Shown in pieces: positions 3,359-12,006 of a stretch of DNA of 64,000 bases. The stretch lies in assembly GCA_045616625.1 (NCBI GenBank), contig JAZLHA010000013.1:4201-68200 (forward strand), read 5' to 3'. Position 1 is the stretch's first letter. Every line of letters begins with the position of its first letter. The stretch is from Candidatus Enterousia sp. (GTDB lineage Bacteria; Pseudomonadota; Alphaproteobacteria; Rs-D84). The translations under genes and the position numbers were made by a program. The notes below the pieces were generated by a model, which saw only the letters and a program-made list of their open reading frames with translations, was not told where the DNA came from and searched no databases.

Positions 3359-6300
3359 ATGAAATCAGGACGTTTGTATCTGGCTATTTCGACGATTTTG
3401 CCATGTGTTTGTTATGCGGCAAATAATCCTGAATTTGCAGCGGCGACAAAGTTGCTTACAGCGGCGAAAAATGCCGATATTCAACAGGTGCAAAGTTTAA
3501 TTAACGGTGGCGCTGATGTAAATTATGTTGATTCAACCGGGTTGTCTTTGGTTTGTACTGCAATAATGAATAATGATACGCGCGCGGTGCAAATTCTCCA
3601 AATGTATGGTGCGGATGCGTCCCAGTGTGATAGGCAGATTAAAAAATATAGAAATTTAAATAATCCTAAATCAAGTTCAGGGGTGTTTAGTGGTTTATCA
3701 TCAACCCAAGGATTGGTTTTATCGGCGGGCGCAGGTGCGGCTGTTGTCGGTGGGGTGTTGTTATTAACTGACGTTTTTGATCCATCAAATGGTAATGGTG
3801 GTTCTGGATCTGGTGGTCATGGTGGTGATGATGATGATCCTGTCAAACCAGACCCAGAATTTACATTGCCATATGGACCATTGTCACAAGATGTGGATGT
3901 TTTTTCATCTGGTGTTTATAAAGCTGATTTTGATTATTTTAGACCTGGTCAAAAAGGTGTTGAAACTAATACTTATCTGACGGATGGTGTTACACCGTTA
4001 CAAAATTATTTGTTAATGATGCATGGTTATCATCCTTTTTCTCGTGGATATATGGGACAGACAACATTTCGTGATAGAAATAACGCGCCAGTAAAAATAT
4101 TAAACGGCACTGGTGGTGGCATCCCAATGATTGTTTCGGCGATAACTAATAATGGTTTGAATTTAGCCGGGTCTTTGGGGCGTGCTAGTGGTATAGCGTA
4201 TGCAGATAGCGCGGCAGTAGATGTAAATACATATACTGTTGATAAATATTTAAATTTTGAGAATCCTATTAAGGAAGAGGAAGAAAATATTTTATCATCT
4301 CTGGGTGAGGAAAAGGGTGGATACGATTTATCTGGATCTGGAACTGTGTTTAATCCGTGGGCAACACCTGATGATTCTGCACTGGGTAAAATTATCGCAG
4401 GATGGGAAGCAGGTGAACGTAGTGTTGCGGATTTATACGGTTTTATACCTAATGGTCGTTTGGCTGTGTATCGTACTGGTGGTGGAAAATCTTGGGCAAA
4501 TGTTGCCGGTGATGTTGTTGCAACTTTGATAAAAGATAACGATAATACCGAAACATTTGTTCAGGTCGGTGATACAATAAAAATTGGTGAAACAATTTAT
4601 ACTATTGAAAAGGCAGTTGCTAGTTCTTCTATAAATAATCCAACCATTACTATTTCAGGGACAACATATAAGGTTGCAGATGATAGTGAAATGTTGGTTG
4701 CAAAGGTTGGTGGTGATGTTAAATTTGCACTTTATCGTGGTACGGACGATTTTTATTATATAAATGATAATGGTGGCAATACTGCCAATAAAGTGTTTTA
4801 TCTAGACCCAAATAAAGACGTAGAGGCAAATGCATATAATTTCTATACGGGTAAAACACTTGAAACTGTGGCGTTTGATACATTTAAGGCAATGTATGCG
4901 GCACGATCTGATGGGGCTGCAGTGATTGCAAATTTGACCATTAATCCTAAAGCAAGAAAATCAAGTTATTTGAATATTAGTGGTGTTGAGAATTATTTTG
5001 CTACTGAAATAGCAAAAGGGAAGGAGAAAACAGATATTGGTATGTTTAAACGTACTATAAGCGAATATTATGATGCTTCATATAATCCTAGTAGTACTGC
5101 GAACAATTATCCTGGTGATTATGCAGATGCTTTGTTTAGCGTTCCGCCATCCTCAATTATTATTATGCCAGCTGGTGAATTTGCGTATGGTTTGGGAACA
5201 GATAAATCAACATCTATATTGGACGCCACATTTGAAAATTATGCACCGGCATTGTATAGCAATTTAGAGCATAGATTTATGACGGTTGTTGCCGTACAAC
5301 ATGCAACAAATGATATTGCTAATCAATCAACTATATCTGGGTATGGTGACGGCGTAAGTTCAGGTGTTTTATATTTGGCTACGCATAAGGAAGGGGACGA
5401 TTTAAATATATCACGTAAATGTGGTGTTGCTGGTTCCGGGGTTGGTTCTGTTGATCCGTGGTGCTTTGCGGCGGCGGGTCCAACAACGGAAATGGCAACG
5501 GCATCGGCTGCTGGTGCGGTGGCTGCTGTACAAGGGGCGTTTAGCACATTTCTCTCAAATGATCAGGTGTTCACTTTGTTAGCGTTGACGGCAGATGGCG
5601 CATATCTAGCTTATGACGATAATGGAAATAAATATACCGAAGATACTTTGAAAAAATATTTGCAATCTATGTATTCTTTACCACAAGATTATCATATTAG
5701 TGAAAATACAAAGGCAAGTGAATATTTAAATGCGTTTAAAGATGTTTATGGCTATGGGCTTATAAATCTGGAAAGAGCGACAAAACCAGGAAAGTCTGTG
5801 TATTACTATGATGGTAGTAAAATAGTTTCAACAAAAGGTAATGCTTATTGGCGTGCCGCTATGAATACAAATGTTAATTTGACGGGGGCTTTTGGCGGAC
5901 GCAGTGCGACAATATCTGCACCATTCTATGATGTTTTAACCAGTGTTGATGGTCAAATGTCTATGCCGCGTATTTGGGAAAATGAATTTACACTCGGGGT
6001 CGATTCAAAACGTGGTTTATATATGGGCGATGTATTGGGTGATTTTAAGGTTCGCAAAGATGATGCCCAGAAAATGCAATTTGGTAATATGGCGTTTTCT
6101 ATGGCGGTGTCGCAACGGCCGTATGTTGATAACTTAAACGGTTTGGATAATTTAAGTTTAAGTTATGATAATGATAAGTTTGGTTTAAATGCTGGGTTCC
6201 AACGTTATTTTACTGATGGTCAATCGCGGTTTAATGGTTTGTCAAATCCAGTATTGGGCTTGGCAACGAATGCAATTGTGACCGGTGGTGAATATAAATA

Positions 6301-7694: not shown

Positions 7695-9752
7695 ATGAAT
7701 CCAGAAGAAGTTCAAGAAACACCAGAACAGGCAATTGCTAAATATACTACCGATTTTACTAAATTGGCGGCGGACGGAAAACTTGATCCTGTTATTGGTC
7801 GTGATGAAGAAATTCGCCGGACCATTCAGGTTTTATCCCGCAGAACAAAAAATAACCCAGTATTAATTGGTAATCCGGGGGTTGGTAAAACCGCGATAGT
7901 AGAAGGTTTAGCCGAGCGTATAATTTCGCGTGATATTCCAGAAAACCTGCAAAATAAAAAATTGCTGTCGTTGGATATGGGTGCTTTGATGGCCGGTGCT
8001 ATGTTTCGTGGGCAATTTGAGGGCCGCTTAAAGGCGATATTAAAAGCAGTCAAAGATTCAGACGGTCAAATTATTTTGTTTATTGATGAATTACACACAA
8101 TGGTTGGTGCCGGCAAAGGTGAGGGGTCAATGGATGCGGGTAATTTATTAAAGCCTATGTTGGCGCGTGGCGAATTGCATTGTTTGGGCGCAACTACATT
8201 GGATGAATATCGTCAATATATTGAAAAAGATCCTGCGTTGGCGCGTCGTTTTCAACCTGTTTATATTGACGAACCAACTGTTGCAGATACGATTTCTATA
8301 TTGCGCGGATTAAAAGAAAAATATGAGGGTCATCATGGGGTTCGTATTTCTGATTCTGCGCTGGTTGATGCGGTTAAACTTTCTAATCGTTATATCACAG
8401 ATAGATTTTTACCAGATAAAGCGATTGACTTAATTGATGAAGCGGCTGCACGTGTTCGTATTGAATTGGCGTCTAAACCAGAGGCTTTGGATGAAGTTGA
8501 TAGACATTTGATGCAATTAAAAATAGAACAACAAGCATTGAAAAAAGAAAAGGATGCAGATTCTAAAAAACGTTTGGCTGATTTGGAAACTTTGATTGCG
8601 AAGACCGAAGAAGAATCAAAAAAAATGACGGCTGTATGGCGCGATGAGCAACAAAAAATGCGTGGACTGTCGGATGCTATGGCGGCGTTAGATTCAGCAA
8701 AGGCTGAGGTTGCAACAGCACTGCGTAATGGCGATTATGAAAAAGCATCTGCATTACAATATGGCAAGATTCCAGAACTCGAAGAAAATATTAAAAAGAT
8801 GAATTCGGAATCAAAAGAATATAAAACTGTTTTGCCAGAACATATCGCGGCGGTCGTTAGTAAATGGACTGGGGTGCCGGCTGATAAATTGAGTGTCGAA
8901 GAACAGTCAAAACTTTTGAATATCGAAGATGAATTGCGCAAACGTGTTGTCGGTCAAGATAATGCATTGTCTGTTGTTGCGCGTGCAATTCGCCGTTCGC
9001 GTGCGGGACTTTCTGACCCACACAGACCCGCAGGTAGTTTTATGTTCCTTGGGCCAACCGGTGTTGGTAAGACCGAGGTTGCCAAGGCATTAGCGGAATA
9101 TCTGTTTAATGATGATACGGCCATGACCAGAATAGATATGAGTGAATATATGGAACCACATTCTGTGTCGCGTTTAATTGGCAGCCCCCCCGGATATGTC
9201 GGTTATGAACAGGGTGGGGTGCTGACCGAAAGTGTTCGTCGTCGTCCGTATCAGGTTTTGTTGTTTGATGAAATAGAAAAAGCAAATCCTGATGTGTTTA
9301 ATGTATTTTTGCAAATACTTGATGATGGTCGTTTGACTGATGGCCAGGGTCATGTTGTTAACTTTACAAACACAATTATAATCATGACCAGCAATTTGCC
9401 AGATATGGATGCAGTGCGTAAAAATTTCCGTCCTGAATTCATAAACAGAATTGATGAAATTGTTTTCTTTAATTCGCTGGGCAAAGATGTTATGGCGGGC
9501 ATTGTTAAAATCCAGTTGGCTAATTTGGAAAAACGTATGTCAGAACGCAATATCGGACTGGATGTATCTGACAAGGCGATTAAATGGTTGGCGGAACATG
9601 GATATGATGCAGTGTTTGGTGCACGACCACTTAAACGTTTAATAACATCAAGTGTCGAAGATAAAATCGCAGATTTGATTTTGTCCGGCAAAGTAGGCGA
9701 GGGTTCAACAGTTCATGTTGATGTCGCCGGCAAAGATTTAATTGTAAAATAA
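7695..9752 (+). CDS. clpB: ClpB disaggregase, naturally N-domain-less form
   Basis: 685 aa with the RBS AAGGAG. It starts about 14 residues before the conserved [38 protein letters not shown]. Both AAA+ modules and the middle coiled coil are present. There is no coding capacity for an N-domain in the upstream intergenic region 7538-7694. Confidence 0.9.
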
Positions 9753-9779
9753 AAACGGGGTTTTAAACCCCGTTTTTTA
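9753..9779 (+). terminator. Rho-independent terminator after clpB
   Basis: A hairpin (cggggtt ... aaccccg) is followed by tttttt. Confidence 0.75.
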
Positions 9780-9935
9780 TCTTTGATGATTATTAATAAA
9801 CATATCCCTTTTTATGGAATTTATTTCATATAAATAAGATTTATCTGCTTTTATATATATTGGTCTGTGTTTTATTTGTTTGTTAGATTGTTGTTTAACA
9901 AATTTGTGTGTTTTGCTCATAATGTTTCCTTATGT

Positions 9936-10829
9936 TTAACGTTGTTTTTGTGGTGTATAGGATTTTTTTGTTTTTTGTATTTCTTTTTTTAGAACAAAAA
10001 AACGTACGCTTCTGACAATGTCTTCAATTGTTACAAATCCGTCAATATAGTTTTGAGGTAGGTATATACCAAACTCTTTATCTATATCCATTGCTAGTTG
10101 CATAATATCTGTTTTATCTAATTTTAAAGGTTTCTTTTCTAGTTTTGTTTCAAGTGTGATAGTTTTTTTTATTTGGTGGCTACGTTTGTCATCCGGATTA
10201 TTTTCACAATAGTTTTTGATTAATATACATAGCTTTTGTAATATAACTGTATTATCAACATTGTTTATAGTTTGTAACACAGAGTGTTGTTTTGTTTTTT
10301 GTTCAATTATTAAATAAATTTTATCGAATAGTTGTTGAACAGTCTCTATATTCTCGGTTGAAAATTCAATAGTGATTTTGTAGAGGTGTTCCATAGCAAC
10401 ACACACATCAACAATATCTAAACTTGTTAAATCTAAATCATATTTTAGATTGGTAGTTGGTGCGATTTGTTTGTTGTTACGAATAACACATTCAGAACGA
10501 ATAAATTTTATTAATTGTTCGTACACAGATTGTTTTGTTATGTTTTGTTTCTGTGTTTTTAATTCCGTGGTTTGTTTTTTTTGTGTCTTTGATTCTATCA
10601 AAAGACATAAATCAGAAACTTTGTTTAATTTTTGTATTTCAGCATCAGTGATTTTTATGTTAAAGACAGTTTCTATATGAATAACTAATTCTGCTAAATC
10701 CAAATCATCAAAATCTAAATCTTCAAAAAAATTAGAATTTTGCGTGACGTCTGCTGTAAAACCCATTGCTATAATTTTCTGATCAATTTTTCCAAATATA
10801 GCTTGTTTATCAATATGATTTTTTTGCAT
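9936..10829 (-). CDS. Protein with three tandem acyl-carrier-protein-like (PP-binding-like) domains
   Basis: Three ACP helix-II-like motifs are present: EDLDFDDLDLAELVIHIETVF (Asp at the Ser position), YDLDLTSLDIVDVCVAMEHLY (Ser retained) and LKLDKTDIMQLAMDIDKEFG (Thr at the Ser position). It is the last gene of the operon that contains the zeta-like kinase. Confidence 0.55.
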   Translation of the reverse strand: MQKNHIDKQAIFGKIDQKIIAMGFTADVTQNSNFFEDLDFDDLDLAELVIHIETVFNIKITDAEIQKLNKVSDLCLLIESKTQKKQTTELKTQKQNITKQSVYEQLIKFIRSECVIRNNKQIAPTTNLKYDLDLTSLDIVDVCVAMEHLYKITIEFSTENIETVQQLFDKIYLIIEQKTKQHSVLQTINNVDNTVILQKLCILIKNYCENNPDDKRSHQIKKTITLETKLEKKPLKLDKTDIMQLAMDIDKEFGIYLPQNYIDGFVTIEDIVRSVRFFVLKKEIQKTKKSYTPQKQR

Positions 10830-10841
10830 ATGTAATCCTTT

Positions 10842-11618
10842 TTATAAACGTATGGCGCCCAAAGCATTTTGTATAATTAATTTTTGTTTTTCTGGTGTCA
10901 TATTTCGAAATTGAGCGTCAGTAATTACCACAGGTTTATTATTATCCAATTCATCTTGAGTAAAGTCGTTTAAAGATTGCATGTATTGCGGAAATTTTCC
11001 AAAAACTCTGGTTTTGTCGTCTGTTTTTAAAAACATCACTTTAAATGGTATGTTGCCAGAATTATCAAGGACCAAGCATGTATCGCTTTGTGCTAAAAGA
11101 TTTGGGAATTTATCAATAATAATTTGGTATCTACGCATAATGTCTTCTTTTGGAACATCGTGTCCACCATTAGCCACTCTTTGTTGAACACGTGCAAAAC
11201 TTAAATTCTTACTGGATAATCCTATGAATATAGATGCTACTCTAAATCCTTCTTTTTTTGCTTGTTCCATGATTTTAAGATGTGTGTTAGATGCAGAAAC
11301 GGTTTCATAAATAAAACTTTGTTTATTTTGTATATGGTGTGATATTTTGTTGAGAATTTCTTTTCCAGCTTTTAACATACAACGATGTTTTATTGTTTCA
11401 GTTTGGGAAGAGTCTGATGTATGTAAAACCAATTGTTTTGCTGTTTCTGGATCTGATAGAAGTTTTTTATTTTCTTCATCCCAATTAATAAAGTCAATAT
11501 TTGCAAAAAAAGGATTGTCTTTAATTTGTGTTCTATAAAAAGTGGATTTGCCTGCACCATTTGGTCCAGCAAGTAATAAAAACAATGGTGCCTCTGATTC
11601 TATGTTTTCTATTGTCAT
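10842..11618 (-). CDS. Zeta-toxin-like / COG4185-type P-loop kinase
   Basis: It has a Walker A motif (LLAGPNGAGKSTF) and GGHDVPKEDIMRRYQ, which is typical of the zeta toxin / predicted ABC-type ATPase family. Confidence 0.7.
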   Translation of the reverse strand: MTIENIESEAPLFLLLAGPNGAGKSTFYRTQIKDNPFFANIDFINWDEENKKLLSDPETAKQLVLHTSDSSQTETIKHRCMLKAGKEILNKISHHIQNKQSFIYETVSASNTHLKIMEQAKKEGFRVASIFIGLSSKNLSFARVQQRVANGGHDVPKEDIMRRYQIIIDKFPNLLAQSDTCLVLDNSGNIPFKVMFLKTDDKTRVFGKFPQYMQSLNDFTQDELDNNKPVVITDAQFRNMTPEKQKLIIQNALGAIRL

Positions 11619-11797
11619 TATAAATCCTCTAGAATTATTTCTTTGCCGTTATCATCAAATTTTACTATATGCTTAGAACCGTTTTGGTTTTCTTTAATAA
11701 GTTTTCCGTCTTTTTCATAGTATTTTGGAAAAGATATTTCCAATTTAATTGGTTTTGTAGCAATTTTTATAATTTCTGTTTCTTTCTTTGTTAACAT
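11618..11797 (-). CDS. Small protein upstream of the zeta-like kinase (candidate antitoxin)
   Basis: The ORF was trimmed to MLTKKETEII... (59 aa). Its stop overlaps the kinase start in an ATGA-type overlap at 11618. Function is inferred from position only. Confidence 0.4.
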   Translation of the reverse strand: MLTKKETEIIKIATKPIKLEISFPKYYEKDGKLIKENQNGSKHIVKFDDNGKEIILEDL

Positions 11798-11930
11798 AGG
11801 AACTCTTTTTTTTATACTATATAATATAATACAAAATATATAAATTGTCAAGTGTATTAATAAAAGGGTGTTTTTTATTTGACAATGTCAAAAGAAATGT
11901 ATAAAATATGTCCGCTTGATTGAGAGTTTT

Positions 11931-12006
11931 GGGGTTGTAGCTCAGTTGGTAGAGCATCTGCTTTGCAAGCAGAGGGTCGTCAGTTCGAGTCTGATCAGCT
12001 CCACCA
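11931..12006 (+). tRNA. tRNA-Ala (anticodon UGC)
   Basis: The 5' end is ggggttgtagctcagttggtagagc. A G3:U70 pair is present. The anticodon stem is tctgc/gcaga with loop ttTGCaa. CCA is encoded. Confidence 0.92.

Follow-up and report, generated by a model that had tools for sequence, protein, structure and literature searches.

A zeta/PezT-type kinase pair and a degenerate acyl carrier-like array in one operon of the clpB/tRNA-Ala slot of Candidatus Enterousia: a possible toxin-antitoxin-like module

What a zeta-type kinase might do beside an array of degenerate acyl carrier protein (ACP)-like domains is the question raised by a small operon of Candidatus Enterousia sp. (Alphaproteobacteria; Rs-D84). 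The operon lies in a stretch of 64,000 nucleotides (GenBank assembly GCA_045616625.1, contig JAZLHA010000013.1, positions 4,201 to 68,200), hereafter called the window, and encodes a 59-aa small open reading frame (ORF), a 258-aa P-loop kinase, a 297-aa protein with three tandem ACP-like domains and a 47-aa Lys-rich ORF. A preliminary description had placed these four ORFs on the minus strand, and all of them were confirmed at their coordinates (Table 1). In this study, we tentatively propose that the operon is a zeta-type toxin-antitoxin (TA)-like pair joined to a pseudo-ACP protein partner, resembling AvrRxo1-Arc1; our confidence in this reading falls short of even, because all of its functional steps are inferred and the parts of the module demonstrably occur apart.

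From sequence profile and model, the zeta/PezT-type class of the kinase is secure, because it passed the Pfam Zeta_toxin threshold (PF06414; 40.8 bits, cut-off 22.3, E = 2.1e-10), carries the conserved columns and gave a confident AlphaFold2 model (pLDDT 82) nearest to zeta toxin and PezT, so that the zeta-like kinase recognised at first reading is supported by both sequence and predicted fold. The kinase also matched AAA_33 (E = 3e-7). GPNGAGK[ST], D47, E105, R143, R147, GGH151-153, R163 and DN185-186 were invariant in 21 kinase homologs, and the kinase is predicted to be catalytically intact; judged from spacing, the D47 and R143-R147-R163 columns are putatively equivalent to D67, R158 and R171 of zeta. 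The best Foldseek matches of the model were zeta toxin (3q8x, 1gvn) and PezT (2p5t), with probability 1.0 and TM ~0.5, followed by polynucleotide kinase and AvrRxo1 (4z8q, 4z8t). Thus the kinase shares with the epsilon/zeta and PezA/PezT systems the Zeta_toxin profile, the P-loop, the conserved Asp/Arg columns and the best structural match, but is only 13-20% identical to zeta toxin and PezT. In PDB, the kinase found P-loop-level matches only, whether searched by sequence or by profile, and PADLOC gave sub-significant matches of the same level. Kinases of the window's clade carry an insertion of ~17-20 residues (LSDPETAKQLVLHTSDSSQTE..., residues 56-75, window positions 11394-11453) that is absent from relatives of 230-240 aa, and the C-terminal ~50 residues, specific to the sub-family, were modelled at low confidence.

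The kinase does not stand alone. As had been noted, the stop of the 59-aa ORF overlaps the kinase start, the two sharing one base (11618) in TAATG, and this overlap together with the low GC content points to a compact small ORF/kinase pair with predicted translational coupling. Such a small gene directly upstream with stop/start overlap likewise recalls antitoxin-first TA operons. When four kinase homologs at ~40-45% identity were looked up in other metagenome-assembled genomes (MAGs) of Alphaproteobacteria, 10 loci were returned, and a homologous 58-59-aa ORF overlapped or abutted the kinase start in every one of them, in four genomic contexts; the compact coupled pair in varied contexts that is expected of type II TA systems was therefore found. 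Relatives of the kinase are common on plasmids, as are zeta-type systems, and in the wider zeta family, too, genes carried by plasmids are preceded by a small ORF. The homologous 57-70-aa ORFs (A1), one of which precedes every kinase of this sub-family outside the genus, share the motif P.YYE...E..DG...D...E.I, and the family of the 59-aa ORF comprises ~21 clusters, all unnamed and all from Alphaproteobacteria MAGs. For the 59-aa ORF itself, there was no Pfam or PADLOC match and NCBIfam matches were at chance level (E 0.04-0.07), and family-library searches revealed no similarity to epsilon or PezA and no helix-turn-helix domain. The pair thus differs from epsilon/zeta and PezA/PezT in having no match to an antitoxin of either type, and the operon differs further in the ACP-like gene and the 47-aa gene that follow the kinase.

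The partner is more unusual. Matches in NCBIfam, Pfam and PDB all supported the three tandem ACP-like domains that had been ascribed to the 297-aa protein: NCBIfam acyl carrier protein models matched three separate stretches at E = 1e-24 to 1e-27 (TIGR00517, 85.1 bits against a threshold of 70.45; NF002148, 92.7 against 71; each in all three stretches), Pfam PP-binding (PF00550) scored 52.7 bits against a threshold of 20.8 (E = 5e-14), and the 58 PDB matches listed were all acyl carrier proteins or mitochondrial complex-I ACP subunits. The first domain is 38% identical to the AcpP of the same genome. The AlphaFold2 model, built from a 3-sequence alignment, reached a pLDDT of 53 and is unreliable, with a helix pattern compatible with a four-helix bundle; PADLOC found no defence-system match for the protein. 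With regard to individual domains, the PDB matches of domain 1 were bacterial ACPs and the best ones of domain 2 were mitochondrial complex-I acyl carrier subunits (7b0n_U, 9iho_U and 6gcs_Q ACPM2), not bacterial AcpP. The tandem layout recalls the multi-ACP synthases of polyunsaturated fatty acids and polyketides, but the protein of the window stands alone, with a basic C-terminal tail and without synthase domains or biosynthetic partners. To our knowledge, tandem ACPs in synthases keep all of their Ser sites, which the array of the window does not.

The Ser sites were assigned by alignment to the genome's own AcpP (GADSLD), and the full D-S-L motif was found in none of the three domains, which read D-D-L, T-S-L and D-K-T. 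D42 (FDDLD) and S136 (LDLTSLD) are invariant in the window protein and its two orthologs, and LDLTSLD recurs in two of the nearest further relatives, P0125 and P0126. The Ser site of domain 3 is Lys in the window and Asn or Asp in the orthologs, with T240 at the Leu position; the Asp and Ser read at first in domains 1 and 2 therefore stand, and the Thr read in domain 3 is the residue one later than the site. The retained Ser of domain 2 likewise agrees with the earlier view that only one phosphopantetheine site survives, but to call that site intact may be an overstatement, since the T-S-L context has no Asp. With D35N in the DSL motif, neither E. coli ACP nor IacP nor a mitochondrial ACP was modified by AcpS when tested in E. 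coli cells (10.1101/2025.01.28.635281). Because the DSL Asp is absent from domain 2, and loss of this Asp blocked AcpS in all three ACPs tested, the predicted T-S-L site may escape pantetheinylation by the single AcpS-type enzyme of the genome. Across the ACP-like family, D-S-L is kept in 7/7 single-domain members, T, N or S precedes the retained Ser in 11 of 12 cases in multi-domain members, and D or E occupies 12 of the 19 lost Ser sites of the latter, the three orthologs being counted separately.

Degenerate or not, these genes are maintained. Among 5.8 billion proteins, only two close relatives of the 297-aa protein were found (L004 and L006), and both are encoded in the same four-gene cassette beside clpB; kinase homologs number in the thousands. 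When the three orthologous cassettes were compared, the small ORF had a ratio of nonsynonymous to synonymous substitution rates (dN/dS) of 0.055, the kinase one of 0.07-0.13, the ACP-like protein one of 0.25-0.36 (domain 1, 0.29-0.35; domain 2, 0.14-0.28; domain 3, 0.22-0.38) and the 47-aa ORF one of 0.04-0.13. All four genes, the Ser-less ACP-like domains included, are under purifying selection, and since dN/dS is low throughout, all four ORFs are real, functional genes. The 47-aa ORF, preceded by an AAGGA 8 nt before its ATG at 9920 as had been described, is conserved as a 46-aa ORF in L004 and L006 and occurs in this clade only; searches of Pfam, NCBIfam and PADLOC returned no significant match for it.

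Does the kinase keep company with ACP-like genes elsewhere? The region between clpB and tRNA-Ala was read in ~65 of more than 150 genomes of the genus, and 1-3 ACP-like domains lie directly downstream of the kinase in 5 of the 6 genus genomes that bear a kinase at this site. Beside the window (three fused domains) these are G182 (a 241-aa kinase, 13 nt and a 124-aa ACP-like protein), G193 (kinase followed by ACP-likes of 115 and 170 aa), G158 (the same with 115 and 159 aa) and G108 (a 70-aa small ORF, kinase and a 229-aa ACP-like protein), so that the ACP-like genes come as one, as two separate or as three fused. The distance from kinase stop to ACP-like start is 11-15 nt in all five (12 nt in the window). 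For comparison, the region downstream of clpB was taken from 59 further genus genomes, unselected, in listing order and all without a kinase; an ACP-like gene adjoins clpB in 2 of these 59 and lies elsewhere in the region in 1 more. Twenty-four loci with more distant zeta-like kinases from the same taxonomic order showed neither an ACP-like nor a small-ORF neighbour. The preliminary description had staked its case on the ACP-like nature of the 297-aa protein and on recurrence of the pairing, and both were found, the latter in G182, G193, G158 and G108 and in the two close orthologs.

In the kinase tree, the clade of the window groups with that of G182, G193, G158 and G065 (support 98/87), G065 being nested inside and G108 sitting on a long, unplaced branch, and the whole grouping is sister to a locus with small ORF and kinase only. 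The simplest history suggested by this tree would be one ancestral linkage, after which one clade lost the small ORF and G065 lost the ACP gene. The linkage has been kept while the kinases diverged to 42% identity, which argues for selection. Taken together, the kinase/ACP link is real but not exclusive, confined to one genus and probably derived from a single ancestral event.

On this basis, the following mechanism is proposed. The operon would be cargo in a hypervariable expression slot, from the tRNA-Ala promoter to the clpB terminator, of gut alphaproteobacteria with tiny genomes. Its core would be a mobile pair in which the 59-aa ORF is translationally coupled to the zeta/PezT-fold kinase, an architecture of epsilon/zeta or PezAT type in which the kinase would be the toxin and the small ORF the antitoxin. 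Within the genus, this pair would have been joined to a fast-evolving ACP-like family, here in the form of a three-domain fusion, of which two domains have no phosphopantetheine Ser and the remaining Ser, in its T-S-L context, is probably a poor site for AcpS. The pseudo-ACP array is more plausibly a partner than a biosynthetic carrier, because loading and condensing enzymes are lacking nearby and the sites are degenerate: the operon contains no adenylation, ketosynthase or acyltransferase gene, and the genome has a normal acpP beside fabF, away from the operon. As an acidic helical protein, the array could dock on the kinase, in a contact that may be physical or functional, as neutraliser, adaptor or pseudo-substrate, and would then act like Arc1, the small helical protein whose gene follows that of the zeta-fold kinase AvrRxo1.

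In the AvrRxo1:Arc1 module, which has a low GC content, a zeta-fold kinase is followed by a helical neutraliser, and Arc1-like genes also occur beside unrelated genes (PMC4938570). The operon of the window parallels this in its gene order, with a zeta-fold kinase gene directly followed by that of a predicted helical protein, in its low GC content and in the occurrence of partner homologs beside unrelated genes. It differs in that the partner is a 297-aa ACP-fold array rather than the 98-aa Arc1, with no homology to Arc1 detected, in that an additional small ORF lies upstream, and in that the kinase has no N-terminal secretion domain. AvrRxo1:Arc1 is an effector module of Xanthomonas, in which Arc1 is the antitoxin or chaperone of an NAD kinase, and the host of the window encodes a type IV secretion system.

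Several observations weigh against a TA-like module with a pseudo-ACP partner. No similarity of the 297-aa protein to Arc1, epsilon or PezA could be detected. The count of five in six does not amount to five independent events, because the tree implies essentially one ancestral linkage, and in the 10 loci outside the genus no ACP gene was found downstream of the kinase, the place being taken by nothing, by an unrelated 279-aa protein or by HydE. In G065 the kinase keeps all catalytic motifs and has neither small ORF nor ACP-like gene, and the small ORF is absent from G182, G193 and G158, which is hard to reconcile with an essential antitoxin. In type II TA systems the toxin is expected always to be accompanied by its neutraliser; the relatives of this kinase differ, some having no small ORF (G182, G193, G158) and one having neither partner (G065). 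Furthermore, ACP-like proteins also occur without the kinase: P0125, P0126, P0131 and P0132 follow a ~310-aa alpha/beta-hydrolase (GHSAG) instead, and in G200 two multi-ACP genes are the only cargo of the slot.

Candidate partners outside the genus were considered as well. The protein of 279-280 aa that follows small ORF and kinase after 8 nt in L010-L013 (~4726-5806) was examined as a diverged ACP array and rejected, there being no ACP signal and only a weak match to a transglutaminase-like core; in L011-L013 a further ORF of 51-67 aa comes after it, in a layout that mimics the operon of the window with different proteins. HydE, which follows the kinase in L014-L016, was set aside as a housekeeping neighbour.

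These exceptions lead to the strongest alternative, that the genes are independent cargo sharing one slot, the kinase and small ORF being self-contained and the ACP-like protein an autonomous pseudo-ACP, perhaps secreted or directed at another target, whose gene would take the clpB-proximal end of the slot and be transcribed together with any gene upstream of it. We regard this as a serious though somewhat doubtful possibility. The preliminary description had called the place between the clpB terminator and tRNA-Ala a typical one for accessory insertions, and the site is indeed an accessory-gene hotspot: clpB served as anchor in 147 of 151 genus genomes, the same tRNA-Ala bounds the slot in 36 of the related genomes surveyed, and the distance between them can be as short as 1.1 kb or exceed 4.5 kb (window 9753-11930; related loci L075-L134). 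Twenty-eight genomes carry an MsbA-like ABC transporter there, and 22 carry proteins of up to 1095 aa that are built of ~60-aa repeats; leucine-rich repeat (LRR)-like and autotransporter-like proteins occur in addition to the alpha/beta-hydrolase, kinase and ACP-like genes. One type of promoter serves all types of cargo; in all kinase, hydrolase and ACP-only loci of the related genomes, a -35 box reading TTGACAA is found at a constant position by the tRNA-Ala promoter, and ABC-transporter loci have a weaker TGGACA box at the same place. Each of the three families can fill the slot alone, because the kinase does so in G065, the hydrolase in L103, L106, L117 and L127, and the ACP-like genes in G200.

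Moreover, multi-ACP-like genes of 2-4 domains follow the hydrolase after 9-57 nt in four loci (L073:221-2521, L138:3037-4915, L139:224-2125 and L140:1-2131). An exhaustive HMMER search gave P0124, P0125 and P0126 as nearest relatives of the 297-aa protein after its orthologs (40-54% identity; P0124 on a short contig), and the window protein resembles the hydrolase-linked members (40-41% identity) more closely than those that accompany kinases of the sister clade. The hydrolase (c6), which has weak DUF900/Hydrolase_4 matches and a basic C-terminus, was considered as a diverged kinase and rejected, since it shows no kinase similarity and belongs, with its GHSAG motif, to the alpha/beta-hydrolases; a phage origin was likewise rejected, four weak matches being all that was found. 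On the other hand, independent cargo would not readily account for an ACP-like gene in 5/6 kinase slots against 2-3/59 kinase-free ones, for a pair kept through deep kinase divergence, or for the steadily tight spacing between kinase and ACP-like gene.

The secreted version of this alternative draws on the basic tails. The genome has a type IV secretion system, because a VirD4-type coupling protein (749-aa frame) and a VirB4 ATPase (810-aa frame) are encoded (C14:47212-48747 and C14:68550-69032), and the last residue is K or R in 18 of 19 members of the ACP-like family, compared with 33.5% of the 719 gene proxies of the source genome, with a terminal motif of [QN][KR] type in 13/19 against 5.7%. 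However, basic C-termini are also found in slot proteins that are clearly cytoplasmic or membrane-bound, including 22 of 28 ABC transporters, and in other slot proteins of this Lys-rich genus; the tail as a type IV secretion signal was therefore set aside as a weak lead, enriched over the genome but shared by such proteins. Eight unrelated proteins of the source genome, the 297-aa protein among them, end in (N/Q)Q(K/R)Q(K/R) or NQ(K/R); the others lie at C1:50123-50980, C2:189-692, C4:19887-20687, C12:52539-53087, C12:72417-72746, C12:188573-189535 and C13:70123-70572, and the set includes dCTP-deaminase-like and HpcH-aldolase-like proteins. The 47-aa ORF ends in NNHQR. Such near-identical C-termini could be a shared signal or a compositional quirk.

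A second alternative, which we consider unlikely, is that the carrier protein is the substrate: the kinase would act on the conserved Ser (S136, or the DSL Ser in single-domain relatives) or on the phosphopantetheine arm, the recurrent Asp or Glu in place of a lost Ser would act as a fixed phosphomimic, and the array could be a decoy protecting the housekeeping AcpP. A precedent exists in HPr kinase, a P-loop kinase that phosphorylates a helix-capping Ser on a small protein. The invariance of the Ser in the orthologs, P0125 and P0126 and the D or E at 12/19 replaced Ser sites are consistent with this, as is the shift from D-S-L to T/N/S-S-L in the multi-domain proteins (11/12), given that such loss of Asp abolished AcpS modification with the Ser kept (10.1101/2025.01.28.635281). 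In addition, the second upstream enzyme, a Ser hydrolase, has a fold that thioesterases also use, so both partner enzymes could act on a carrier protein. D and E are, however, common in this acidic region of any ACP, and the Ser-site counts include related sequences. We also know of no zeta-family kinase that acts on proteins. The known members use nucleotide-linked small molecules, zeta, PezT and ng_zeta1 acting on UDP-GlcNAc (PMC5923241) and AvrRxo1 on NAD (PMC5491322).

In an extended form, to which we give little credence, kinase and hydrolase, which alternate upstream of these genes, would both act on acyl carrier protein, the kinase phosphorylating the phosphopantetheine-site Ser, and the pseudo-ACP arrays, in which this site is fixed as Asp or Glu or keeps a Ser in surroundings unusable for AcpS, would restrain the enzymes as dedicated pseudo-substrates or decoys. 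If true, this would be a toxin/immunity logic aimed at a hub protein of lipid synthesis, with the first zeta-family kinase known to have a protein substrate.

Specialised ACPs are frequent in alphaproteobacteria. Nevertheless, a true acyl carrier, serving for instance a specialised lipid or the IacP-like acylation of a secreted protein, with domain 2 pantetheinylated by AcpS and the kinase as a pathway enzyme, is the least likely of the readings and highly improbable, since, for all the AcpS-type transferase in the genome, the canonical DSLD of single-domain relatives and the precedent of IacP, a dedicated accessory ACP of Salmonella SPI-1 (PMC5279801), no loading, condensing or transferring enzyme lies in or beside the operon, two of three domains have no Ser and the third no DSL Asp, and the gene is limited to a handful of species and rapidly reshuffled.

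As for the setting of the operon, the four genes are predicted to be co-transcribed as one operon, from a promoter beside tRNA-Ala to the clpB terminator (Table 1). The operon promoter matches 11 of 12 consensus positions and stands back to back with the near-consensus promoter of tRNA-Ala, an arrangement of tRNA-Ala and cargo promoters that is conserved across the genus. At the other end, clpB and the operon converge on a putative common terminator hairpin with a stem of 12 bp and 5 GC pairs (AAAAACGGGGTTTTAAACCCCGTTTTT). The GC content of the operon is 27-30%, against ~40% in the flanks. The source genome (G000) is 814 kb in size and 96% complete, and in public data the nearest relatives of its proteins carry the label of Alphaproteobacteria MAGs.

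Table 1. Features of the operon and its boundaries, in window coordinates
Feature	Position	Strand	Remarks
clpB	7695-9752	+	Fixed slot boundary; convergent with the operon
Bidirectional intrinsic terminator hairpin (predicted)	9751-9777		Common to clpB (+) and the operon (-)
47-aa Lys-rich ORF	9777-9920	-	AAGGA ribosome-binding site
297-aa protein, three tandem ACP-like domains	9936-10829	-	Basic C-terminus, ...PQKQR
ACP-like domain 3 (~aa 195-285)	9975-10247	-	Ser site K239 (codon 10113-10115), LDKTD
ACP-like domain 2 (~aa 97-180)	10290-10541	-	S136 kept (codon 10422-10424), LTSLD
ACP-like domain 1 (~aa 7-85)	10575-10811	-	Ser site D42 (codon 10704-10706), FDDLD
258-aa zeta/PezT-fold P-loop kinase	10842-11618	-	
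59-aa small ORF	11618-11797	-	Upstream of the kinase; candidate antitoxin
Sigma-70-type operon promoter (predicted)	11823-11851	-	TTGACA-17-TATATT
tRNA-Ala promoter	11879-11907	+	TTGACA-17-TAAAAT
tRNA-Ala(UGC)	11931-12006	+	ARAGORN; fixed slot boundary

The zeta/PezT kinases are a large and widespread toxin family, and many of them are orphans for which neither partner nor substrate is known (PMC10532202). Orphan toxins and candidate upstream antitoxins, but no carrier proteins, are listed in a recent review of the diversity of PezT and zeta. It had been suggested that a multi-ACP-like partner is absent from known TA and kinase systems, and our full-text literature search agreed in finding no paper that describes one or joins a zeta-type kinase to an ACP-like partner. 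The kinase pair is familiar; what is unfamiliar is the family of pseudo-ACP partners, which alternates between kinase and hydrolase, and a degenerate ACP family beside a zeta-fold kinase falls outside TA, defence and effector schemes. If the genes are independent cargo, the finding shrinks to an ordinary zeta-type pair beside an odd protein family. In either case, the cargo swapped between species in this slot is a natural experiment on accessory-gene turnover in reduced genomes. If, on the other hand, the proteins work together, the zeta kinase family would gain either a novel type of neutraliser or adaptor or a novel substrate at the protein level, and pseudo-ACPs without a prosthetic-group site would have a first function.

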